Assembly (NCBI GenBank): GCA_036517475.1
Contig: DATDVZ010000002.1
Coordinates: forward strand, 1 to 45,607
Direction: 5' to 3'
From: Minisyncoccota bacterium
GTDB taxonomy: Bacteria > Patescibacteriota > Minisyncoccia > Phycocordibacterales > Zambryskibacteraceae
Length of the DNA: 45,607 nt
The translations under genes were made by a program, and so were the position numbers. Positions 14,863 to 36,812 of this stretch are shown one piece after another; the stretch's first letter is position 1; each line of letters starts with the position of its first letter. Under the pieces are notes generated by a model. That model saw only the letters and a program-made list of their open reading frames with translations. It searched no databases and was not told where the DNA came from.

Positions 14863-17800
14863 ATGGCTAGAAATAGAGTTAACCTACAACCTACAACTTA
14901 CAACAAACAATCCAAGTCTTTACTGGCGCAAAAGGAGGAGGAGATTCTAGATTTCTGGAGACAGAATAAAATTTTCCAAAAATCTCTTGAAAAGCCCTCC
15001 CCAAAGGGAGAATTTGTATTTTATGAGGGTCCTCCAACCGCCAATGGCAAACCGGGGATGCATCACTTTTATCAGCGCGCTTTCAAAGACCTTATTCCGC
15101 GCTTCAAGACAATGCAGGGTTACCATGTCAGAAGAAAAGCGGGCTGGGATACTCACGGTCTTCCAGTTGAGCTTGAGGTTGAAAAAAAACTCGGGATTAA
15201 ATCAAAAAAAGAAATAGAGACTTATGGTATTGCAAAATTTAATGAAGAGTGTAAAAAAAGTGTTTGGACGTATGTTCTAGAGTGGGAGGATTTTTCAAAA
15301 AGGATGGGATTTTGGTTGGACTTTGAAAATCCATATGTAACTTACGAGCCCCAGTATATTGAATCAATATGGAGCATTGTTAAACATATTGATGACAGAG
15401 GACTTTTATATAAAGACTATAAAGTTGTGCCGTGGTGTCCTAGATGCGGCACAGCACTCTCTTCTCATGAACTGGCACAGGGATACGAGGATGTTAAGGA
15501 CGTTTCGGTTTTTGTTAAATTCAAAATAACTAACAACAAACAACCAACAACTAACAACACTTATCTGCTTGCGTGGACAACTACACCTTGGACACTGCCG
15601 GGAAATGTTGCTTTAGCAGTTGGAGAGAACATTGAATATGTAGAAGTAACCAACAACCAACAACTAACAACCAACAATAAAAAAGAACATTTAATATTGG
15701 CAAAAAATAGACTCACTGTTTTTGATAAAGAATACGAGATTGTCAAAGAACTTAAAGGAAGAGATTTAGTTGGTTTGGAGTATGAACCATTGTTTCCATA
15801 TTTGAAAGATAATATTTCCGAGTCACAAAAGGAAAATTTAAAAAATGCTTATAAAGTTTACCCGGCGGATTTTGTTACAACAGAGGAGGGTACCGGTATA
15901 GTTCATACAGCAGTGATGTACGGTCAGGATGATTTTGAATTGGGGACAAAAATTGGCTTACCCAAGCATCACTTAGTTGGGGAAGATGGAAAATTTCTTC
16001 CAAATACAGGCGAAATTTCCGGCAAGTTTGTAAAAGATAAAGAAACCCAAGATTGGATAATAAATGACCTTAAATCAAGAAACTTGTTATTAAAAGAGGA
16101 GCTCTATGAACACTCTTATCCATTCTGTTGGAGATGTAATACGCCTTTAATTTATTACGCAAGGGATTCGTGGTATATAGCCATGTCCAAATTGCGCAAC
16201 AATCTGCTGAAAGAAAATGAAAAAATTAATTGGAATCCGGAATACATTAAAGAAGGCAGGTTCGGTGAATGGTTAAGGGAAGTCAAAGACTGGGCAATCT
16301 CTCGTGAACGTTACTGGGGGACCCCTCTTCCAGTCTGGCAAAATGAAAAGAACGAAAAAATAATTGTTGATTCAATTGAGACACTCAAGAAATATATTCC
16401 AAAATCAGGAAACCGCCACTTTGGAATGCGGCACGGTATCTCTGATCATAATATCTCGTTTACTTGCAGTTCATCAGAAAATTACGCAGATCACGTGACA
16501 GAAAAAGGAATAGGAGAAATTAAAAAGACTGCCCAAATTTTAAAGAGCAAAAATATAACAAAAATTTTTTCCTCTCCTTTTGTCCGTACCAAAGAAACAG
16601 CAGAAATTGTCGCAAAAGAAATCAATTTTCCGGTTGAAAAAATAATTTATGATGACAGAATTCGCGAATACAATTTTGGTGTATTTGATCAGAAATCTCG
16701 TAATTTATATGATGAATGGCGAAAAGAAAACAACAAATTTGACTCAAAACCCGATGGAGGGGAATCTTTCGCTGATGCTAAAAAAAGGGTAGCTGAATTT
16801 TTTTACGACATTGATCATAAACATAAAGATGAAAATATTCTCTTCATTACTCACGGCATTGCATTTGAAGTTCTTCCCTCGATTATTAATGGTTTGTCAG
16901 TAGAAGTTGGCTGGAAGGGTTGGGCACAAAGCGATGTTTTGTATGCAGATTTGAGAGAATATGAGTTTGTCCGACTTCCTCATAATGAAGAATATGAAAT
17001 TGACTTGCATAAACCTTATATTGATGAAATTGTCCTTGTAAAAGATGGTAAAGAATATCAAAGAGTGAAAGAAGTAATGGATGTCTGGTTTGATTCCGGT
17101 TCAATGCCCCTATCTCAGGATCATTATCCCTTCGACTCCTTCGACAATGCTCAGGATAAATCCGCTCAGGGTAAACCTTTTGAAAACACAAAGCTATTAT
17201 ATCCGGCGGATTTTATATGCGAGGGTCTTGATCAAACAAGGGGCTGGTTCTATACACTACATGCGATTGGTAATTTGATGGAAATGGGTCATGCCTATAA
17301 AAACGTTATATGTTTGGGGATACTTTTGGATGAAAAGGGACAAAAGATGTCAAAATCAAAAGGTAATGTCGTTGATCCATGGCAGCAAATGGAAAAATTC
17401 GGGGCTGACCCGCTGCGCTACTGGTTTTATGCTGTTAATCAGCCGGGTGAGTCAAAGGATTTTGATGAAAAATCTATTGATGAAGTCGTAAAGAAAGTTT
17501 TCAATCTTTATTTAAACTCAGTAAAGTTTTATGAGCTTTATGCTGAAAAAAACACCATAAAAATTGGGCGTTCTCACATTCTTGATCGCTGGATTATATC
17601 TTTACTCAATAAACTAATTGAGGAAGTAACGAATGATCTGGAATCGTACAAAGTCTTTGAAGCGGCACGTTCAATTCGAGAATTTATCTCTCAACTCTCC
17701 CAGTGGTATATTCGCCGATCACGTAACCGTTTTAAAGAAGATATCGAAAGAAAGGAAGCGAGCGCGACATTAAGGGAAGTACTTCTTTCACTAGCTGAAA

Positions 17801-18375
17801 TTTTAGCTCCGTTTACGCCGTTTATATCTGAAGATGTTCACCGCCGCCTTAATGGGGAAGGAGAAAGCGTCCACTTGAGAAACTGGCCTGATGTTGGAGA
17901 AATAGATGAAAAAATTATTAATAGTATGGAGAAAACAAGGATGCTCACTTCCTTGGCACTTGAAGCGCGCGCCAAGGCCGGAATTAAAATACGCCAACCT
18001 CTTTTAAAATTAAAAATCAAGGATCAAAAATCAGGATTGCCCAGTGAATTTTTAGAAATAATTAAAGAAGAGGTTAATGTCAAAAATGTTGATTTTGATG
18101 AAACAATACTGGAAGAAATTGAACTTGATACTAAAATAACTGCAGAACTGAAAGAAGAAGGGGATTTAAGGGAAATAATAAGAGCTTTTCAGGAAGCTAG
18201 AAAAGCCAAACTCCTTACCCCTGAGAAGCAAATATCTTCTTCTGTTAATGTTGATGCGAAAACAGCAGAAATAATAGAAAAAAACACCGACGAAATTAAA
18301 AGAAAAGCCAGAATCTCTTTTATTAGCATCAATATCGGCGATGAAGACAGTAAACTTGAAATAAATTTAGAATAG
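14863..18375 (+). CDS. ileS: isoleucine--tRNA ligase (type 2) with inserted histidine-phosphatase-like domain and in-frame heptamer-repeat tracts
   Basis: HIGH-region PPTANGKPGMHHFYQRAF, editing-domain WTTTPWTLP, KMSKSKGN, and a long C-terminal extension. Residues ~515-690 form an extra domain carrying RHG and THG motifs. Confidence 0.95.
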   Translation: MARNRVNLQPTTYNKQSKSLLAQKEEEILDFWRQNKIFQKSLEKPSPKGEFVFYEGPPTANGKPGMHHFYQRAFKDLIPRFKTMQGYHVRRKAGWDTHGLPVELEVEKKLGIKSKKEIETYGIAKFNEECKKSVWTYVLEWEDFSKRMGFWLDFENPYVTYEPQYIESIWSIVKHIDDRGLLYKDYKVVPWCPRCGTALSSHELAQGYEDVKDVSVFVKFKITNNKQPTTNNTYLLAWTTTPWTLPGNVALAVGENIEYVEVTNNQQLTTNNKKEHLILAKNRLTVFDKEYEIVKELKGRDLVGLEYEPLFPYLKDNISESQKENLKNAYKVYPADFVTTEEGTGIVHTAVMYGQDDFELGTKIGLPKHHLVGEDGKFLPNTGEISGKFVKDKETQDWIINDLKSRNLLLKEELYEHSYPFCWRCNTPLIYYARDSWYIAMSKLRNNLLKENEKINWNPEYIKEGRFGEWLREVKDWAISRERYWGTPLPVWQNEKNEKIIVDSIETLKKYIPKSGNRHFGMRHGISDHNISFTCSSSENYADHVTEKGIGEIKKTAQILKSKNITKIFSSPFVRTKETAEIVAKEINFPVEKIIYDDRIREYNFGVFDQKSRNLYDEWRKENNKFDSKPDGGESFADAKKRVAEFFYDIDHKHKDENILFITHGIAFEVLPSIINGLSVEVGWKGWAQSDVLYADLREYEFVRLPHNEEYEIDLHKPYIDEIVLVKDGKEYQRVKEVMDVWFDSGSMPLSQDHYPFDSFDNAQDKSAQGKPFENTKLLYPADFICEGLDQTRGWFYTLHAIGNLMEMGHAYKNVICLGILLDEKGQKMSKSKGNVVDPWQQMEKFGADPLRYWFYAVNQPGESKDFDEKSIDEVVKKVFNLYLNSVKFYELYAEKNTIKIGRSHILDRWIISLLNKLIEEVTNDLESYKVFEAARSIREFISQLSQWYIRRSRNRFKEDIERKEASATLREVLLSLAEILAPFTPFISEDVHRRLNGEGESVHLRNWPDVGEIDEKIINSMEKTRMLTSLALEARAKAGIKIRQPLLKLKIKDQKSGLPSEFLEIIKEEVNVKNVDFDETILEEIELDTKITAELKEEGDLREIIRAFQEARKAKLLTPEKQISSSVNVDAKTAEIIEKNTDEIKRKARISFISINIGDEDSKLEINLE
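14883..14910. repeat. heptamer tandem repeat (CCTACAA)2-CTTACAA-CAAACAA at ileS 5' end
   Basis: Four consecutive 7-mers. The tract is translated as the N-terminal NLQPTTYNKQ. Confidence 0.6.
15528..15560. repeat. heptamer tandem repeat TAACAAC-AAACAAC-CAACAAC-TAACAAC within ileS
   Basis: Translated in-frame as TNNKQPTTNNT, immediately N-terminal to the WTTTPWT editing motif. Confidence 0.65.
15648..15680. repeat. heptamer tandem repeat CAACAAC-CAACAAC-TAACAAC-CAACAAT within ileS
   Basis: Translated in-frame as VTNNQQLTTNNKK, 90 nt downstream of the previous tract. Confidence 0.65.
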
Positions 18376-18968
18376 TGCCGTACAGAATCTATAATACAAA
18401 AGCAGTTATTTTAAAAAGCAGCCCACATGGTGAGGCGGATAAAAACATAATAATGCTAACAGAAGACCTGGGGCTGATAAGAGCACAAGCCAAGGGAGTA
18501 CGTTATGAAAAATCAAAATTAAATTCCAAGCTTCAGGAAATGAACTTATCAGAGGTTGGTTTGGTGCGTGGTAAAAATTCATGGAGGCTGACAAGCGCCA
18601 TTGGAATTCAGAATTACTTCAGATTACTAAGAAACCAAAAATCCAAAGTTCAGGTCTTCTCAAGAGTACTGAATCTTATCCTTCAGCTGATACATGGTGA
18701 GGAAAAAAATTCCCACCTTTTCAATTTGATAGCTGATGCTGGTAATTTTCTCATTAAAAAAAATTTAAGCACCAATGAGATTATGATTTTTGAGCTGATT
18801 CTTGTTTTGAGGGTTCTTGAACAGCTTGGTTATATAAATCAAAGGGGTGAATTGAAAGAACTCACAAATAGTTCTTGGGGGGAGGCGATTGCGATCGGAG
18901 AAAAAAGCAAGCAAAAAATAGTTGCAGGCATAAATAATGCGCTAAAAGAAAGCCACCTTGGGGTATAA
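18375..18968 (+). CDS. recO: DNA repair protein RecO
   Basis: RecO N-terminal OB pattern (KAVILKSSPHGEADKNIIMLTEDLGLIRAQAKGVRYEKSKL). The start overlaps the ileS stop. Confidence 0.55.
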   Translation: MPYRIYNTKAVILKSSPHGEADKNIIMLTEDLGLIRAQAKGVRYEKSKLNSKLQEMNLSEVGLVRGKNSWRLTSAIGIQNYFRLLRNQKSKVQVFSRVLNLILQLIHGEEKNSHLFNLIADAGNFLIKKNLSTNEIMIFELILVLRVLEQLGYINQRGELKELTNSSWGEAIAIGEKSKQKIVAGINNALKESHLGV

Positions 18969-19084
18969 CCCCATGAGATGCAGTTAAAAAAATATGGTGT
19001 ATATTTTTTTAGATAGACGGTTTTAAATAGGCAGTATTGAAGCGGCTCTAGTCTATAGTAGGTAACTATCTCACGGGGTATAAT
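18960..19084. repeat. ~120-bp inverted-repeat-bounded element, copy 1 (TAACCCCATGAGATG ... ATCTCACGGGGTATAAT)
   Basis: The terminal 13-mers at 18968-18980 and 19068-19080 are reverse complements with one mismatch. The right end is fused to the -10 TATAAT box at 19079-19084. The interior resembles copy 2 (ACGGTTTTAA...AGTATTGAA). Confidence 0.45.
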
Positions 19085-19127
19085 AGCTTATGATTTATAG
19101 TTAGAATGATTATTAATACTGCAAAGA

Positions 19128-21035
19128 ATGCCTAAAAATAAACTGGAAAAACTTGAGGAAAGGTTATATTCGAGAAAATTTGAACCTGGTAAAAGTGAGA
19201 GATTTGCGCTCGGCAAGGACGATGCACAAGAGTCAAAATCTTGGGAAGATAAAGAAGGGGTGAGTGATCTTATCAGGACGCATCTTGATGATAGAGATAA
19301 AAAAGGAAAGTTGCTTAAAAAAATTCTGGTCTCTTCAATAATCTTTTTTGCTGTCGCGGTTTTAGTTTCATTTTTTATTTTTTTTGGCGGCAGAAATGCT
19401 GTCTCTTCTAAAAATATAGGTATTTCTGTAAGTGGCCCAAGCACAGTTGCTGGGGGAGAAATTCTCTCTCTTGATGTTACGGTTAGTAATGATAATAATG
19501 TTGCGCTTCGTAATGTGGTTTTAATTGTAGAGTATCCAAATGGCACCAAAGTTGCCCTTGATCTTTCCAAGGAGCTTACCAGAGCGCGAGAGACAATTGA
19601 CAAAATTGATGCGCGAGCAAGACTTACAAAAAATTTCAAGGCAGTGCTTTTCGGCGAGAAAGAGGAGATAAAGCAGATTAAATTCACTCTTGAATACCGT
19701 CTTGAAGGATCAAGTGCACTCTTCAGCAAAGACAAGTTTTTTGAAATCCTTATCAAATCTTCTCCAGTAATACTGGAATTAAATTATCCTAACGAGGTAA
19801 ATTCAGGAAAACCATTTGAGATAATTCTAAGTTTATCTTCAAACAGTTTGGAAACTCTAAAAAATGTTTTATTAACGGCAACATTTCCATTTGGTTTCAG
19901 CTTTTCTGATTCGGAGCCCAGAGCATCTGATGGTAATAATGTCTGGAAAATTGGGGATTTGGAAAGCGGGGAGAAAAAGCTGATAAAGATTCACGGCAGT
20001 ATTATTGGAGAAGATGAAGATGAGAGAACATTCAATTTTTCTGCGGGGATTGAGGGCAGAGAACAAAATGTCATTGAAGCGAACTTCACGACATCAATTG
20101 CTACAATTTTTATTAAAAAACCGTTTATATCTTTATCTGTCACAATAGATGGTAAAAACCCCGAAGACTTCTCTGTCATTCCTGGGCAAAAATCAAAAGT
20201 TAATATTGTCTGGTCCAATAATTTACCCGAAACGGTAAATAACATGAAAATTGAGGCAAAAATTGAGGGAGTTGTGCTTGATCGTTCATCAGTAATTACT
20301 ACAGAGGGTGGGTTTTATAGGTCATTTGACAATACTATTGTCTGGGATAGAGGCAGTGACCCTGATTTTGATTCCGTCTCCTCTGGTGAAAAGGGTGTTG
20401 TCGGATTCTCGTTTGCTCCAATTTCAAATATTTCATCATCTCTGCGCAATCAAAAAATTGTGTTAAATATTAGCGCATCTGGCAATATTTCTTCTCCGAC
20501 TGGTTCCAAACCAGTATCTTCTAGCATTTCTGAAGATATAAAGATATATTCCGCACTTGGTCTTAGCGGTATGGCCGTAAGATCCATTGGTCCATTTGAG
20601 AATATGGGTCCTATACCACCAAAAGCTGACAATGAAACTACTTACACAATTATTTTTTCACTCTCAAGCCCATTCAATGATATAAATTCTGTTGAAGTGA
20701 CAGGTAGCTTACCCTCTTATATTGCTTGGAAAAATCTCACATCACCTTTAAATGAAAATGTAACATATGATGAAAATAGGAGGGTTGTAACTTGGAAAGC
20801 CGGCATTGTACGTGCGGGTTTGGGTAGTGGAAATACAAGGCAAGTCGCTTTTCAGATTTCTCTTACACCCAGTTTAAGTCAAGTAGGTAATCTAGTTAAT
20901 TTGCTGACCGATATTGTAGCAACAGGTTTTGATCAGTTTACAAACCAGAATCAAAGAGTGACAATTTCTTCAATCACTACACGCACTATTTCTGATCCGC
21001 AGTTTAAGGAAGGTGATGATAAGGTGGTGAAATAA
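19128..21035 (+). CDS. membrane-anchored large surface protein with Ig-like/CARDB-type repeats
   Basis: Charged N-terminus and one TM helix (ILVSSIIFFAVAVLVSFFIFF). A ~540-aa extracellular region follows, with repeated beta-rich segments. Confidence 0.55.
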   Translation: MPKNKLEKLEERLYSRKFEPGKSERFALGKDDAQESKSWEDKEGVSDLIRTHLDDRDKKGKLLKKILVSSIIFFAVAVLVSFFIFFGGRNAVSSKNIGISVSGPSTVAGGEILSLDVTVSNDNNVALRNVVLIVEYPNGTKVALDLSKELTRARETIDKIDARARLTKNFKAVLFGEKEEIKQIKFTLEYRLEGSSALFSKDKFFEILIKSSPVILELNYPNEVNSGKPFEIILSLSSNSLETLKNVLLTATFPFGFSFSDSEPRASDGNNVWKIGDLESGEKKLIKIHGSIIGEDEDERTFNFSAGIEGREQNVIEANFTTSIATIFIKKPFISLSVTIDGKNPEDFSVIPGQKSKVNIVWSNNLPETVNNMKIEAKIEGVVLDRSSVITTEGGFYRSFDNTIVWDRGSDPDFDSVSSGEKGVVGFSFAPISNISSSLRNQKIVLNISASGNISSPTGSKPVSSSISEDIKIYSALGLSGMAVRSIGPFENMGPIPPKADNETTYTIIFSLSSPFNDINSVEVTGSLPSYIAWKNLTSPLNENVTYDENRRVVTWKAGIVRAGLGSGNTRQVAFQISLTPSLSQVGNLVNLLTDIVATGFDQFTNQNQRVTISSITTRTISDPQFKEGDDKVVK

Positions 21036-21073
21036 CCAACAACTAACAACTAACAACCAATAACTAACAACTG
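21035..21073. repeat. heptamer tandem repeat (CTAACAA-like x5) in the intergenic region upstream of glyQS
   Basis: The sequence is AACCAACAACTAACAACTAACAACCAATAACTAACAACTGG. Confidence 0.65.
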
Positions 21074-24078: not shown

Positions 24079-25128
24079 ATGAATAATATAAGTATATCTT
24101 CAGGGACAATTGTCAGAGCAATACTTTTTGGTGTTCTTTTTTATTTTCTATTTTTAATAAAGGATGTAATTCTTATATTACTTACTGGTATTGTAATAGC
24201 CTCTGCTATTGAACCAGGCACGCGATGGTTTATCCGCCATAGAATTCCTAGGATTCCTGCAGTACTTGCGATTTATCTTGCCACAGCAGTTATTTTTGTT
24301 TCGGCTTTCTACTTTCTCCTAGTGCCCCTGGTAACTGAAACAGCAAATTTTCTCCAGACTCTTCCTGAATATTCACAGACTCTAAGTCAAAGTCAGAGTT
24401 TTCAGAATGTCACAGAGAATTCCGGCGACTTAATTCAAAACATTACTGAAGGTTTTTCACTGCCTTCAATTGCAAATACAGTGAATGCCGCGTTATCAAA
24501 GATATCTGCGGGTTTTTTCGGCACAGTTGACGTTATCTTCGGAGGTATTGCAAGCTTCTTATTGATAATTGTTCTTTCATTTTACTTAGCTGTACAGGAT
24601 GATGGTGTAGGGAAATTCCTCAAAATGGTAACGCCCGTTAGTCATGAAAAATACGTCGTTGGTCTATGGGAAAGGTCAAAAGAAAAAATCGGGCTTTGGA
24701 TGCAGGGCCAACTCTTACTCGCGATTATTGTAGGAATCATGACTTTTTTGGGTTTGACTATAATTGGTATAAAGGGGGCCTTACTCCTTGCTTTTTTTGC
24801 AGCAATTTTTGAAATCATTCCTTTATTCGGACCATTTCTTGCTGCAGTACCAGCAGTCCTGGTTGCATTTGTTGATGGCGGTTTAACCCTGGCATTAATT
24901 GCTACTGGACTCTATGTTGTTATCCAGCAGTTTGAATCTCAGCTCATCTATCCTTTGGTTGTAAAAAAAGTTATCGGAGTTCCTCCAATAATTTCAATTA
25001 TTGCCATTGTCGTGGGCCTTAAGCTGGGAGGTTTTTTGGGAGTAATTCTTTCAGTGCCCCTCGCAACAGTTCTCTTGGAGGTCTTAAGCGATCTGGAGAA
25101 AAGAAAGAAACTAACAACTAATAACTAA
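24079..25128 (+). CDS. AI-2E family transporter (PerM/UPF0118)
   Basis: Polytopic membrane protein with the AI-2E topology and conserved mid-region. Confidence 0.7.
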   Translation: MNNISISSGTIVRAILFGVLFYFLFLIKDVILILLTGIVIASAIEPGTRWFIRHRIPRIPAVLAIYLATAVIFVSAFYFLLVPLVTETANFLQTLPEYSQTLSQSQSFQNVTENSGDLIQNITEGFSLPSIANTVNAALSKISAGFFGTVDVIFGGIASFLLIIVLSFYLAVQDDGVGKFLKMVTPVSHEKYVVGLWERSKEKIGLWMQGQLLLAIIVGIMTFLGLTIIGIKGALLLAFFAAIFEIIPLFGPFLAAVPAVLVAFVDGGLTLALIATGLYVVIQQFESQLIYPLVVKKVIGVPPIISIIAIVVGLKLGGFLGVILSVPLATVLLEVLSDLEKRKKLTTNN

Positions 25129-25138
25129 CTACGAACCA
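25111..25138. repeat. heptamer tandem repeat CTAACAA-CTAATAA-CTAACTA-CGAACCA spanning the AI-2E gene stop
   Basis: It encodes the C-terminal KLTTNN and extends past the stop codon. Confidence 0.55.
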
Positions 25139-25203
25139 TCTAAAAGATTTTAAGTTTGGAAGTTTGTAAGCGTTTATTATATTTAATTTAAACAGATAAA
25201 CTT

Positions 25204-26124
25204 ATGAGCGAAGCGGAACTTAGTAACTTACCGACTTACTTTGACGTTCATTCGCATTTAAATTTTCCCGATTACGGGGACGAACTTTCTGAAATCATAA
25301 AAAGAATGAAAGAAGCGGGAGTATGGACTATTTGTATAGGAACTAACTTTAAAGATTCTCAAGTGGCAGTCGAGCTTGCAGAAAAACACGAGGGAATTTT
25401 TGCTTGTGTCGGTATTCACCCCATTAAAGAAGATCTACCCAAGGACTCCCCTTGGGAATTGGAATCTAAGGGGAGTCCTTGGGATTTTAATGAGACGGAA
25501 CTTGAAAAACTCGTAAATCACCCGAAGGTGGTTGCGGTGGGAGAGTGCGGACTTGATTACTTTTCCGCCCCAGGCGGACCCGCCTCTGGCGGAGGTGGTT
25601 TGAGCGAGGGTGAAAAAGACAGGCAGAGGGATCTTTTTAAAAAACAAATTGAGTTTGCACTTAAGCATGATAAACCTCTGATGATCCACGCGCGCTCTGC
25701 CTACGATGAAATAATCGAAATTCTTTTTGAGTATAAAAGAAAAGAGCTCGAGGACTCCCCTTGGGAATTGAAACTTAAGGGGAGTCCTCGAGACCCAGGG
25801 CTTCGAGGCAACATTCATTTTTTCACAGGAAATCTGGAGCAAGCCAAAAAATTTATTGATCTGGGTTTCACTCTTTCATTTGCCGGTCCGATCACTTTTG
25901 CAAGAGATTATGATGAAGTAATTAAAAATATCCCTATAGAGTCGATTCTTTCTGAGACCGATTCACCATTTGTTGCACCTGCTCCATATCGGGGTAAGCG
26001 CAACGAACCCTCCTATGTAATAGAGATTGTAAAAAAACTTGCCGAAATTCGTGAGGAAAACGAGGAAGTATTTCAAAAACAACTTGTCGCAAACGCTCTA
26101 GAGTTATTCCAAATAAAGCCTTAA
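25204..26124 (+). CDS. tatD: TatD family metal-dependent deoxyribonuclease, with three in-frame palindromic insertions
   Basis: FDVHSHLNF, GIHP, VAVGECGLDY, MIHAR and SETDSPF are all present. There are extra in-frame segments, DSPWELESKGSP and DSPWELKLKGSP, and a Gly-rich insert. Confidence 0.85.
   Translation: MSEAELSNLPTYFDVHSHLNFPDYGDELSEIIKRMKEAGVWTICIGTNFKDSQVAVELAEKHEGIFACVGIHPIKEDLPKDSPWELESKGSPWDFNETELEKLVNHPKVVAVGECGLDYFSAPGGPASGGGGLSEGEKDRQRDLFKKQIEFALKHDKPLMIHARSAYDEIIEILFEYKRKELEDSPWELKLKGSPRDPGLRGNIHFFTGNLEQAKKFIDLGFTLSFAGPITFARDYDEVIKNIPIESILSETDSPFVAPAPYRGKRNEPSYVIEIVKKLAEIREENEEVFQKQLVANALELFQIKP
25443..25478. repeat. 36-nt palindromic element copy 1 (GGACTCCCCTT-14nt-AAGGGGAGTCC) inside tatD ORF
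   Basis: The 11-bp arms are perfect reverse complements. The element is in-frame and encodes DSPWELESKGSP. Confidence 0.7.
25752..25787. repeat. 36-nt palindromic element copy 2 inside tatD ORF (flanked by CTCGAG on both sides)
   Basis: Near-identical to copy 1. It encodes DSPWELKLKGSP. The palindrome extends to 14 bp when the CGAG/CTCG flanks are included. Confidence 0.7.
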
Positions 26125-33934: not shown

Positions 33935-34204
33935 TTACTATACGCAAAATAGCTAGGTTTTGCGTAATAAAAACCATCTTTACCCGTCAGAATTTAGGTC
34001 AAACAGAAATTCTTAATTCCTTCATTGTAGCTTCGCTTGAAAGACCGCAAAATTTACCAACTCTCTTTCCCCCTCGTGTCGATCCTTACAAAGGGTTGGG
34101 AGGGAAAGTTATGAGTTTAGGATTAATAGTTAGAAAAGTTATAAATCAAAAGTTTTTAAGGGGAGTTTAGTATAATGCCCGAAAAAACTTAATAATAAGT
34201 TATT

Positions 34205-36232
34205 ATGAAAAAATTATTTACAAGTGTTTTAGCAATTGCGTTTGCTTTGAGTTTTGCAGTTCCGGCTAGTGCTTTGACAGTAGCTGAAATCCAAGCTCAA
34301 ATTATGCAATTACAAGCAGCTCTCGCAGCTCTCACAGGTGGTGGAGGAGCTAGTGTCACGTTTACCACCGACCTCACCATTGGTAGCAGAGGAACAGATG
34401 TTACCGCGCTTCAGAATTGGTTAATCTCAAGAGGATTCTCAATTCCAGCCGGTGCAACTGGATACTTCGGTACTCAGACAAGAGCAGCAGTTGCCGCATG
34501 GCAAGCTTCCGCTAACATTTCTCCACCGGTAGGATATTTTGGTCCTATCTCTCGAAGTGTTGTCAATTCAATGGTTGGTGGATCGGTTTCAGTGGTTCCT
34601 GGTTGCGCACCTGGCGCACTGTATAGTGCAACAACAGGAGCACCATGTAGTGGAGTCACTCCGCCCCCAGCAAGTGGTGGTGGAATTACAACTCCAGGAG
34701 CAGAAGGTACTCTTACAGTATCTAAGAACCCTAGTCCTGCAGCTGGTACAAAAATGTACGAAGCAGATGACAAAGTCGGCGTTCTCGGTATTAAACTGGA
34801 AGCCGACCTTTCAGACATCAAGGTTGAAAGAGTTAAAGTTGACCTTGATCACGTAACTGGTACTACAGTTGCTGACCAGAACCTTTACAACAAGATTGCT
34901 GAAAGGATCTATGCAATGGATGGTTCAACCGTTCTTGCATCTTCAGATCTAAATTCAAGCACTGTTGTTAAAGACGGTTCAGATTACTTCATTACCATTA
35001 CTGGTATTAACTTCGTAGTTCCAAAAGGAACAACTAAAGTTCTTACTATTGGTCTTGATGCAAGAGCAACATGGGATTCAGACTATGATACAGAAACATG
35101 GTCTCTTGGTGTTCCAGTTGATGGAGTTAGAGGTCTAGATGGCGCTGGTATTAACCAATATGGTCCAGCTACAGCCTTTACTAACAACTTCACAACGGAA
35201 GGTAATCTTGCTGAAAGCGCAACTTTGACAATTTCAACAGCTTCTGACACACCACAAGATGACGAGGTTATTTGTACTCTTTCTTCAACAGAAGATGAGT
35301 GTGATAAGCTCGAAGTTTTGAGGATGAACTTCAAAGCTGAGAAAGATGATGTTCTGGTTACGGATATTACTTCCAACATCCAGAAGACTGACGCTGGTAC
35401 AGCCACAACTTCAACTGCTTACCTCTATGACGGTTCAGCCCTCGTAGGTTCAGCAACAGTGTTGAACTTCAGCGGTCAGAACAGCGCAGTATTCACTGAT
35501 ATTGACTGGACAGTTCCGAAAGACACAACCAAGACACTTTCTCTCAAACTTGATATTCAGGATGCTGTAGCAGGTCCAAGCGTATTTAGCGCTTCAACAA
35601 CTGCAGCTAATGTAACTTCAGAGAACACAACTGGAACAGGTGCAACCGAATCTGGTAACGGTATCGGTGAATCAGTAACCGTTCGCAATGTTGGTCCTGA
35701 ATTTACACTGCTTAGTAAGAACGTTACTTACACAGCAAGCGGTGGATTCGCTGGAGCTACTTCAACCGCCAAAGCTGACTTTACTCTAAGAGTTAAAGCA
35801 GTTGGCGCTGATATTGAATTCGGTGACTCCGCTTCAACAACCTATGCATTGGCTGGTGGATTCCCATCAGGTGCAGCTGGTACTTCAACTGTCATCTACA
35901 GAGGTGGTTCATCATCTCTTACTGATGGTATAGTCTATGTTTCTTCTTCAACCTCTATAACAGTTCCGTCAGGTGTAACAGCCGCAGTCGGAGCAAATAG
36001 CTGGATTCTTGCAGAAGGAAATAGTGTTGATATTCCAATTTCCTTCGTCTTCAACGGACGATCAGGTAACACTGGTGTATTGGGTAGCGGTGCTGAAGTC
36101 ACAACTGGCGCATATGCAGTTGGTCTAGAAAGATTGAACTGGCTAACCAATGCTGCTGCTGGTGGAAGAGAAACTTCAACCTTCATGGCAGGTAACTCTG
36201 CTTGGAGAACTGGCACAGTAACAATGCCGTAA
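34205..36232 (+). CDS. secreted cell-surface protein with N-terminal peptidoglycan-binding (PG_binding_1-like) domain and long S/T/G/A-rich region
   Basis: Signal peptide. GSRGTDVTALQNWLISRGF...GYFGTQTRAAVAAWQ matches a PG-binding domain. Elevated GC arises from the Gly/Ala/Thr codon bias. Confidence 0.7.
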   Translation: MKKLFTSVLAIAFALSFAVPASALTVAEIQAQIMQLQAALAALTGGGGASVTFTTDLTIGSRGTDVTALQNWLISRGFSIPAGATGYFGTQTRAAVAAWQASANISPPVGYFGPISRSVVNSMVGGSVSVVPGCAPGALYSATTGAPCSGVTPPPASGGGITTPGAEGTLTVSKNPSPAAGTKMYEADDKVGVLGIKLEADLSDIKVERVKVDLDHVTGTTVADQNLYNKIAERIYAMDGSTVLASSDLNSSTVVKDGSDYFITITGINFVVPKGTTKVLTIGLDARATWDSDYDTETWSLGVPVDGVRGLDGAGINQYGPATAFTNNFTTEGNLAESATLTISTASDTPQDDEVICTLSSTEDECDKLEVLRMNFKAEKDDVLVTDITSNIQKTDAGTATTSTAYLYDGSALVGSATVLNFSGQNSAVFTDIDWTVPKDTTKTLSLKLDIQDAVAGPSVFSASTTAANVTSENTTGTGATESGNGIGESVTVRNVGPEFTLLSKNVTYTASGGFAGATSTAKADFTLRVKAVGADIEFGDSASTTYALAGGFPSGAAGTSTVIYRGGSSSLTDGIVYVSSSTSITVPSGVTAAVGANSWILAEGNSVDIPISFVFNGRSGNTGVLGSGAEVTTGAYAVGLERLNWLTNAAAGGRETSTFMAGNSAWRTGTVTMP

Positions 36233-36310: not shown

Positions 36311-36366
36311 ATATGTGTAAATATTCTTATTTCTGGGCGTACAATTTAGGCTTTTTTAAAACACCA

Positions 36367-36407
36367 CCCATGTCAACCTGCCAGGTTGACATGGGTGTGG
36401 TATCAGA
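36367..36407. repeat. ~40-nt near-perfect palindrome CACCCATGTCAACCTG|CCAGGTTGACATGGGTG (TTGACA on both arms)
   Basis: 14-bp perfect arms plus partially paired extension. Confidence 0.5.
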
Positions 36408-36486: not shown

Positions 36487-36610
36487 ATACCCCATGAGAT
36501 ATAAAGGGAAATATCGATTTATTTTAAAATTACATCAAACAGTTTTAAGTTTCATCGAGTATTGCAAAAATTATCTCACGGGGTATGGCCATATAATATC
36601 TCACGGGGTA
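36487..36610. repeat. ~120-bp inverted-repeat-bounded element, copy 2 (ATACCCCATGAGAT ... ATCTCACGGGGTA x2, each followed by TATAAT/TAAAAT)
   Basis: The inverse 13-mer is at 36488-36500. Direct 13-mers are at 36573-36585 and 36598-36610. -10-like boxes lie at 36592-36597 and 36609-36614. Confidence 0.45.
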
Positions 36611-36812
36611 AAATTAATACATGTGGAAGCTGTTTGATAACACATTCTTCAAGTTTCTATTTGGGTTTCTTGTAATACTTGCTATAAGTATTCTTATTCT
36701 TTTTGCCGCCCAGTATTGGAGTAAAAAAGGAAATCCCGATTCAACTTACGTTCAAGTGAGTTCTCAATAATTTGCAGTTGACACTCAACGGGTCTTTTGT
36801 TTGTATTGTTAA

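Follow-up and report, generated by a model that had tools for sequence, protein, structure and literature searches.

The subject of this analysis is a 45,607-nucleotide stretch of contig DATDVZ010000002.1 (assembly GCA_036517475.1; the whole stretch is referred to as the window), which comes from a Minisyncoccota bacterium of the candidate phyla radiation (CPR) and carries two short elements bounded by inverted repeats, from here on called copy 1 and copy 2. Copy 1 (18968-19079, 112 bp) separates recO (18375-18968, stop codon at 18966-18968) on its left from the gene of a 635-aa DUF11-domain protein (19128-21035) on its right. It consists of a left terminal inverted repeat, or arm, ACCCCATGAGATG (A variant, 18968-18980), an 86-bp interior (18981-19066) that contains no open reading frame (ORF) and no promoter-like site and is unlike other interiors, and a right arm, TATCTCACGGGGT (19067-19079). 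Copy 2 (36489-36584, 96 bp) has a PG_binding_1 protein gene (34205-36232) on its left and, on its right, a membrane-like 49-aa ORF (36621-36770), for which a look-up gave no record and which is followed by the gene of an 884-aa beta-helix/LCAT-lipase protein (36813-39467). Its arms, ACCCCATGAGATA (A variant, 36489-36501) and TATCTCACGGGGT (36572-36584), enclose a 70-bp interior (36502-36571), and the element is flanked by a 2-bp direct repeat, AT, located at 36487-36488 (preceded by T36486) and at 36585-36586. The arms of both copies can be written as ACCCCATGAGAT(A/G) on one end and TATCTCACGGGGT on the other. A Pfam scan covered the nine ORFs flanking the two copies. Both copies are non-coding, non-autonomous members of a very widespread family similar to transposable elements of the miniature inverted-repeat kind (MITEs), and they probably represent the ORF-less members of a family of inverted-repeat-bounded elements whose ~280-bp units encode a GIY-YIG nuclease.

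A preliminary description of the window, based on its letters alone, had reported two inverted-repeat-bounded copies. Both were confirmed in place, and the 13-mer ATCTCAYGGGGTA has five matches in the window at up to two mismatches (four of them exact) compared with 1.15 expected. The start of copy 1 had been put at 18960 and has to be moved: positions 18960-18968 are the 3' end of recO, a target-derived GGGGTATAA that recurs at 19075-19083 and forms a 9-bp direct repeat with it, the net duplicated nucleotides being ATA (18965-18967 and 19080-19082). A duplicated right end of copy 2 does exist in the form of a solo extra right arm, TATCTCACGGGGT (36597-36609), 12 bp past the element. This solo arm is either the remnant of an older element or an earlier arm beside which copy 2 inserted. 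The single mismatch between left and right arms is likewise present, but it reflects a systematic A/C asymmetry (G/T on the other strand) that recurs in 95 of the 133 elements of the family. In their interiors, copies 1 and 2 show some resemblance (ACNGTTTTAA, AGTATTG) when aligned, but it is not significant in an all-against-all BLAST comparison of interiors.

Copy 1 is a recent insertion. Identical RecO is encoded on 18 contigs from related samples, ten of which were fetched for comparison. Nine of the ten agree with the window through copy 1, while one, L127, lacks exactly 115 bp and shows the empty site CTTGGGGTATAATAGC, the surrounding sequence reading ...GCCACCTTGGGGTATAATAGCTTATG... Outside this indel, L127 and the window differ at only 3 of 3,935 positions, which identifies L127 as a co-occurring strain. 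The 115 bp are thus a presence/absence polymorphism within one population. The same uninterrupted CTTGGGGTATAATAGC is found in a sister species (L211/L212, RecO 63% identical), and in a more distant relative the spacer between recO and the DUF11 gene measures 28 bp. Because these outgroup sites are also empty, the empty state is ancestral for copy 1. GGGGTATAA is single-copy in L127 and in L211/L212 and stands on both sides of copy 1 when the site is occupied, and the net gain of 115 bp corresponds to the 112-bp element plus three nucleotides (ATA). The suggestion that the copies are MITE-like mobile elements is supported by the insertion polymorphism of copy 1, its ancestral empty state and the 2-bp direct repeats that are found in the family. 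A different inverted-repeat-bounded element of ~125 bp, with arms TCCCGTACGAAAC / GTTTTGTACGGGA and a flanking TGC direct repeat, occurs in L211 (777-905) and L212, where it overlies the DUF11 orthologue's start codon, ~35 bp from the empty copy 1 site. Several families of mini-elements seem to circulate in CPR genomes related to the window organism.

The extent of the family was analyzed by searching one genome per GTDB species for the pattern ACCCCRTGAGAT-N65-95-ATCTCAYGGGGT, which demands perfect arms and for which ~0.1 chance matches were estimated from the pattern and the size of the collection. The preliminary description had made its reading depend on further copies, and at least 119 loci carry the same arm pair. 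Among the loci listed, ~79 belong to CPR bacteria (Saccharibacteria, Kaiser-, Nomura-, Pacei- and Parcubacteria) and 18 to Planctomycetota or Verrucomicrobiota; Bacteroidota, KSB1, Calditrichota and Ignavibacteria are also represented, as are single bins of Nitrospiraceae, a gammaproteobacterium and Bifidobacteriaceae. Family statistics rest on 133 elements for length, arms and flanks, on 135 interiors and on 171 oriented elements. Element length ranges from 91 to 115 bp with a mode of 97-98 bp, and the termini are 13-16-bp inverted repeats of the form (T-W-Y)ACCCCRTGAGATA ... TATCTCAYGGGGT(R-W-A), the full palindrome being TATCTCACGGGGTATACCCCGTGAGATA. The motif reaches outward beyond the element ends (marked here and below by slashes) as T-W-Y/ACCCC...GGGGT/R-W-A, and at the third flanking position 93 of 96 cases have T and 87 of 96 have A. 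An A/A pairing of arms occurs in one of the 133 elements.

Elements of this family are nearly always intergenic and several can be found per genome, some of them in tandem, with GGGG-TATA-CCCC junctions between adjacent elements in 14 cases. Shorter classes with ~9 or ~37 bp between the arms also exist, and the KSB1 contig L054 contains extra tandem copies relative to its paralogue L110. The interiors are highly diverse: by BLAST, 110 of 135 have no significant match to another interior, even within one genome, and only nine small clusters are formed. A search for a shared interior motif yielded only a weak central T-run/A-run pattern. An open frame running from arm to arm is present in just 5 of the 171 oriented elements, which argues that there is no coding constraint. 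No consistently linked gene was identified among the loci listed, the largest cluster of neighbors being an ABC ATPase at eight loci, and no arm pairs were found in a viral collection of 2.9 million contigs. Candidates for larger arm-bounded elements in two CPR loci (L055 and L103) were rejected, as ordinary genes lie between arm matches that are chance near-matches. The idea that interiors were copied from elsewhere in their own loci was also discarded, since all apparent matches turned out to be other elements with imperfect arms.

A target-site signature surrounds the elements. The two nucleotides to the left equal the two nucleotides to the right in 67 of 133 elements, compared with 26.5 +/- 3.1 when partners are permuted. 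Since non-palindromic pairs are among them (T-AC/AC-A, T-GT/GT-A, T-CT/CT-A, T-AG/AG-A and T-GA/GA-A), what the signature records is a T-NN-A target whose central NN has been duplicated in direct orientation, and not a longer inverted repeat. The target-site duplication that had been proposed as a check is thus present, and in the window it takes the form AT/AT at copy 2 and ATA/ATA at copy 1. The 2-bp repeat is a CPR trait (57 of 86); copies from Planctomycetota and Verrucomicrobiota (PVC) and from the Bacteroidota group (FCB) are flanked as TTY/.../RAA and have no duplication. Copy 2 obeys the CPR rule (T-AT/.../AT), and copy 1 obeys it with one extra A. With respect to target choice, 14 of 270 element ends abut a full arm, and of the remaining ends 7.8% are ATACCC-like compared with a background of 4.0%, indicating that arm-like targets are mildly favored. 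The clearest arm-like target is that of copy 1, where GGGGTATAA agrees with an element end and its flank in all nine positions.

Some elements persist in place. At an orthologous site between GH1 glycosidase and membrane-protein genes, three CPR species carry elements of 96, 95 and 96 bp with identical arms and the same AG repeat, and their interiors have almost wholly diverged. Identical arms despite decayed interiors imply that arms and spacing are maintained in place, possibly by selection, conversion or hot-spot replacement, with the qualification that a search for perfect arms inflates the impression of arm conservation to some degree. Conserved arms and spacing at one site in three species would also suit a protein-binding module and thus bear on the proposal that the right terminus brings a -10 box, or that the arms bind a regulator, and that surface-protein genes are controlled in this way. 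Both window copies are indeed located upstream of large secreted-protein genes and co-oriented with them, and GGGGTATAAT and TAAAAT stand next to their right arms. However, GGGGTATAAT, the supposed -10 box within 19075-19083, also lies 41 nt upstream of the DUF11 start codon ATG in the empty allele, so the element cannot be said to deliver it and the promoter claim of the preliminary description is not supported. A TATAAT does occur beside the right arm, but the empty allele and the sister species contain it as well; it predates the insertion and corresponds to the family's conserved outer flank (consensus GGGGT-ATA-c), a target/flank consensus that is symmetric on both sides. Scanning for the sigma-70 consensus, from which CPR promoters may differ, returned 0 sites around copy 1 (1.3 expected) and 3 sites around copy 2, where 2.3 were expected. 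In the family at large, 38 elements are found between co-directional, 7 between convergent and 6 between divergent genes, showing no preference for divergent (promoter) regions; element orientation relative to genes is 15:14, again without bias; and some elements lie within genes. The position upstream of surface-protein genes is therefore true of the window but coincidental, as the neighbors elsewhere are unrelated and include ABC ATPases, YidC, a GH1 glycosidase, kinases and integrases. Taken as a whole, control of surface-protein genes by the element appears improbable. Regulator binding may exist as a secondary, exapted role, considering the arms conserved at the orthologous site, but no test run supports such a role. 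The two copies are passengers in two intergenic regions with no demonstrated effect on downstream genes. If these genes share a leader or promoter motif, a 33-nt stretch, 79% identical (..ATAGTTAGAA..), at 19085-19117 and 34114-34146, just 5' of the DUF11 (19128) and PG_binding (34205) genes, is a stronger candidate than the element.

Short segments of ~100 bp between short inverted repeats and upstream of surface-protein genes also resemble invertons, in which case a recombinase would flip the ~70-90-bp interior and thereby phase-vary the downstream surface protein. We give this explanation almost no credence. At the level of assemblies, all nine occupied contigs, which stem from different assemblies, show copy 1 in the same orientation, and the sole variant is its precise absence. 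The interior of copy 1 contains no sigma-70-like site and that of copy 2 is at background, again with the proviso that CPR promoters may differ from the consensus. No recombinase gene recurs beside the elements among the loci listed (n of at least 119), and at other loci the arms bracket a nuclease ORF. The 2-bp direct repeat that flanks elements counts against an inverton as well, since inversion sites make no such repeat. In contrast to an inverton, then, neither inversion nor a promoter nor a linked recombinase was seen at these elements, and a target duplication and an empty allele were found instead.

A further explanation holds that the arms act in RNA, as a 12-13-bp closing stem with a G.U pair on one strand, and that the elements are structured processing or stability elements. 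The arms are complementary, their A/C mismatch turns into G.U on the opposite strand and elements occur within operons. However, Rfam scans of the window, the surroundings of both copies, ten related loci and one GIY-YIG unit gave no relevant match at gathering or permissive thresholds, and interiors fold no better than shuffled sequences (mean z = -0.3). The strand capable of the G.U pair is sense in 15 and antisense in 14 cases, and an A-U pair is found at the mismatch position in only 1 of 133 elements, the opposite of RNA-type covariation. A structured RNA is accordingly very unlikely. No tRNA or tmRNA was detected in a scan of the window. A CRISPR-like array was considered and rejected, the family showing only short tandem runs and solitary elements that end in half-palindromes.

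The same arms are found around ORF-bearing units. In L054, as well as in its paralogue L110, two arms separated by 259 bp surround an 86-aa ORF, which in L054 matches the Pfam GIY-YIG family (PF01541, E = 5e-17). The right arm doubles as the last codons and stop of this ORF (AAT TAT CTC ACG GGG TAA, N-Y-L-T-G-stop). The association was tested from the protein side, which avoids circularity: an ORF alignment retrieved 576 relatives in metagenome contigs, and in 63 of the best 80 of these 576 the start codon is preceded at a distance of 4-40 nt by one arm while the stop codon is overlapped by the other. Units with exact arms measure 275-345 bp and are flanked as TTY/.../RAA. The two arms covary: 16 loci have the variant GTTAGATA, a synonymous change in the right arm, at either end and only one locus is mixed, and a Kaiserbacteria unit located between pheS and pheT has AGCCCGTTAGAGA as both of its arms. 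One source labels the protein of this pheS/pheT unit 'excinuclease ABC subunit C', likely a mis-annotation. The unit with AGCCCGTTAGAGA arms was observed in at least 24 contigs (L214-L221, Kaiserbacteria) from the groundwater samples of the window. A 111-bp element in L104 (4838-4948) still encodes residues of the GIY-YIG N-terminus together with the C-terminal end (MINKYYVY...FYIGYTNDTRRRLKE...NYLTG-stop) and is an internal-deletion derivative of a GIY-YIG unit. The last six nucleotides of the copy 2 interior, AAAAAT, equal the K-N codons preceding the arm in several GIY-YIG units. On the plus strand, copy 2 also has an open frame from a left-arm ATG to right-arm NYLTG codons (MRYKGKYRFILKLHQTVLSFIEYCKNYLTG), one of the 5 such cases in 171 oriented elements; its ends, faintly like GIY-YIG N- and C-termini, may be a deletion remnant or chance.

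The 86-aa protein approximates a bare catalytic core with no separate DNA-binding domain. Residues Y18, R28, H32, N33 and E64 are invariant in the ORF alignment, and Y18, R28, H32 and E64 are presumably the catalytic residues of GIY-YIG proteins. The nearest solved structures are those of UPF0213 proteins (1zg2 and 1ywl, E ~1e-9) and SLX1 (E ~2e-3), and there are otherwise only weak matches to TIGR01453 and PHROG. For UPF0213/YhbQ-type proteins and SLX1, the best structural matches, no inverted-repeat bracketing or repeat linkage was found in the literature searched. The protein family comprises at least 7,961 clusters at E <= 1e-10, with generic annotation only, and no relative was found in plasmid and phage records at E <= 1e-8.

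Several conserved boxes of tyrosine-recombinase genes are interrupted, by miniature copies as well as by units, and a homologue that is uninterrupted at both L054 sites confirms the reconstructed recombinase. When the interrupted integrase frames were used as a boundary test, 0-3 extra nucleotides were obtained, following no single rule. The interrupted boxes (HLAV^EKQ, GNHL^KLSD, DI^xTVQ, LLGH^xxxxTTMIY and MIY^TH) belong to the phage-integrase family, and the loci concerned are L054, L110, L147, L155, L159, L166, L180, L189, L210 and L098. The DNA of the IYTH box (ATTTACACCCACGT) resembles the arm. In two Saccharibacteria loci (L116, 1-560, and L096, 1970-2700), distant small GIY-YIG ORFs are located by tRNA genes and flanked by a duplicated tRNA 5' part (CTGCCGGATCGTC... 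and AATATTCCGCGGTA...), an arrangement which suggests that other GIY-YIG clades may insert site-specifically into tRNA genes.

Membership of the window copies in the GIY-YIG element family, the reading we prefer, builds on four observations: the polymorphism of copy 1 with its ancestral empty state, the 2-bp repeats of CPR copies, the shared and covarying arms and the deletion intermediate. A number of points weigh against it. A GIY-YIG gene with these arms is absent from the 45.6-kb window and from the 79 CPR loci with miniature copies (~8 kb each), and the canonical-arm units that carry a taxon name come only from KSB1, Planctomycetota, Bacteroidota and Ignavibacteria/Melioribacteraceae. CPR copies have T-NN/NN-A flanks and, in 74 of 86 cases, G/A arms, whereas ORF-bearing units have TTY/RAA flanks and mostly G/G arms; given these differences, another enzyme could move the CPR copies. 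The 110 of 135 unrelated interiors are unlike those of ordinary MITEs, and conservation of arms in place around a decayed interior is at odds with simple selfish decay, which predicts otherwise. No GIY-YIG protein is known to act as a transposase. In a Planctomycetota subgroup (L049, L038, L145 and L178), moreover, the ORF is found beside or between complete miniature elements, which fits the reverse relation, namely a nuclease gene homing into elements.

Under that reverse relation, the arms would be kept for another reason, as a host site or as ends moved by another enzyme, and the GIY-YIG gene would be a free-standing homing endonuclease that targets them, a parasite and not a mobilizer. 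In L049 the ORF stands between two elements whose interiors are 100% identical over 69 nt, and in L038, L145 and L178 it extends into a complete element's left arm. The distant GIY-YIG ORFs flanked by a duplicated tRNA 5' part point in the same direction, as do the CPR copies with their other flank signature, their lack of a linked ORF and their arms conserved in place. On the other hand, 63 of the best 80 ORFs are enclosed by one arm pair whose right arm supplies their last codons; the arms covary with the ORF lineage, as expected if each nuclease recognizes its own ends; and in L104 an ORF-bearing unit is seen decaying into a miniature. Homing into pre-existing elements seems unlikely.

Returning to the preferred reading, that the window copies are ORF-less members of the GIY-YIG element family, we infer a partner nuclease in CPR genomes and the following mobilizing mechanism. 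The nuclease would recognize the arms, or a hairpin or cruciform that they can form. SLX1 is a structure-specific nuclease, and recognition of a hairpin or cruciform would suit an enzyme of this type. Staggered cuts made by the nuclease would yield the 2-bp repeat, and characterized GIY-YIG enzymes typically leave a 2-nt stagger. Host repair or microhomology-primed copying might then complete the insertion. Arm-like targets would be preferred, as may be illustrated by copy 1 in GGGGTATAA, copy 2 by the solo arm and the tandem pile-ups.

A literature search for the exact arm sequences and for GIY-YIG proteins with repeats returned no description of these elements; it was limited to searchable texts and is no proof of novelty. 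The nearest known counterparts are bacterial MITEs and the partnership of REPINs with RAYTs, which the family resembles in form and from which it differs in its enzyme, its unrelated interiors and its cross-phylum ends. Bacterial MITEs include the Correia/NEMIS elements of Neisseria, RUP and ERIC. Like these, the elements are small (~100-150 bp), have terminal inverted repeats and a 2-bp target duplication at TA-rich sites, are intergenic and non-coding, occur in multiple copies per genome and show presence/absence between strains, with empty and occupied sites documented for copy 1. In contrast to MITEs, the copies of a genome do not share sequence over their whole length (110 of 135 interiors unmatched), the same termini are found across distant phyla and the ORF-bearing relative encodes an 86-aa GIY-YIG nuclease instead of a DDE or other known transposase. 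Neither a promoter nor an IHF site is demonstrated in the family.

Papers on REP, BIME and REPIN sequences include PMC3116915 and PMC2817692. The family shares with these sequences and their RAYTs the inverted pairs at preferred spacing, the small nuclease-type gene flanked by inverted repeats, the long persistence at orthologous intergenic sites and the tandem mosaics. RAYTs are HUH/Y1 (IS200-like) proteins, a REP is a palindrome with a GTAG/CGTC tag and REPIN families are lineage-specific; by comparison, the gene associated with the present family is of the GIY-YIG type (PF01541), the arm ACCCCRTGAGATA is neither palindromic nor so tagged, and the arms are cross-phylum and accompanied by a 2-bp direct repeat. 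A paper on free-standing and intron-borne GIY-YIG homing endonuclease genes, such as those of I-TevI and the Seg proteins, is PMC2988022. With these genes the family has in common the catalytic domain, selfish behavior and insertion at conserved sequences. It differs from them in encoding no more than the ~85-aa catalytic core, in its inverted-repeat bounds, its many non-allelic sites, its ORF-less derivatives and the lack of occurrences in the phage and viral collections searched.

Other repeats and unusual features occur in the window. One is a perfect palindrome at 36365-36397 (CACCCATGTCAACCTG-G-CAGGTTGACATGGGTG), upstream of copy 2 by ~90 bp, whose stem measures 15 bp. On the minus strand it looks like a terminator, and the bases at its outer ends (ACCCATG) are similar to those with which an element arm starts; it may be either a related short hairpin element or just a terminator. 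Two copies of a 43-nt repeat, with 88% identity, are found at 25442-25484 and 25751-25793, 309 bp apart and inside the ORF 25204-26124, each copy holding a hairpin with a 12-bp stem (AGGACTCCCCTT...AAGGGGAGTCCT). The gap that separates a gene end at 39840 from a gene start at 39907 is occupied by a perfect 22+22-nt palindrome (AAATTCTTATTCTAATGTTCTT/AAGAACATTAGAATAAGAATTT) at 39853-39896. Isoleucyl-tRNA synthetase (14863-18375) contains an inserted histidine-phosphatase domain (His_Phos_1, residues 522-685), and CAA/ACA-rich repeats (AACAACTAACAAC...) are found in its coding sequence and again in the intergenic leaders at 21013-21071 and 25095-25139.

For the window itself, the outcome is that its two surface-protein genes lose a tempting but unsupported regulatory story. 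For the family as a whole, we tentatively propose that the ~280-bp units may constitute an undescribed class of prokaryotic mobile elements, possibly the smallest self-contained one known, in which a bare GIY-YIG nuclease together with host repair takes the place of a transposase. In that case the ORF-less ~97-bp copies, the window's two among them, would be their MITE-like derivatives, spread through CPR, PVC and FCB bacteria, with termini that could be actively maintained through conversion driven by the nuclease, turnover at hot spots resembling arms, or exaptation. If the link is true, a bare nuclease of ~85 aa with a 13-16-bp recognition sequence underlies a mobile-element family in many poorly studied phyla and has left hundreds of miniature copies in small CPR genomes. 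It would explain recurrent strain-level indels and interrupted genes in metagenome-assembled genomes and would correct mis-annotations, for example 'excinuclease ABC subunit C' and ORFs artificially extended into arms. It would also offer a very small sequence-specific nuclease for study and represent a new enzymatic basis for bacterial DNA mobility.

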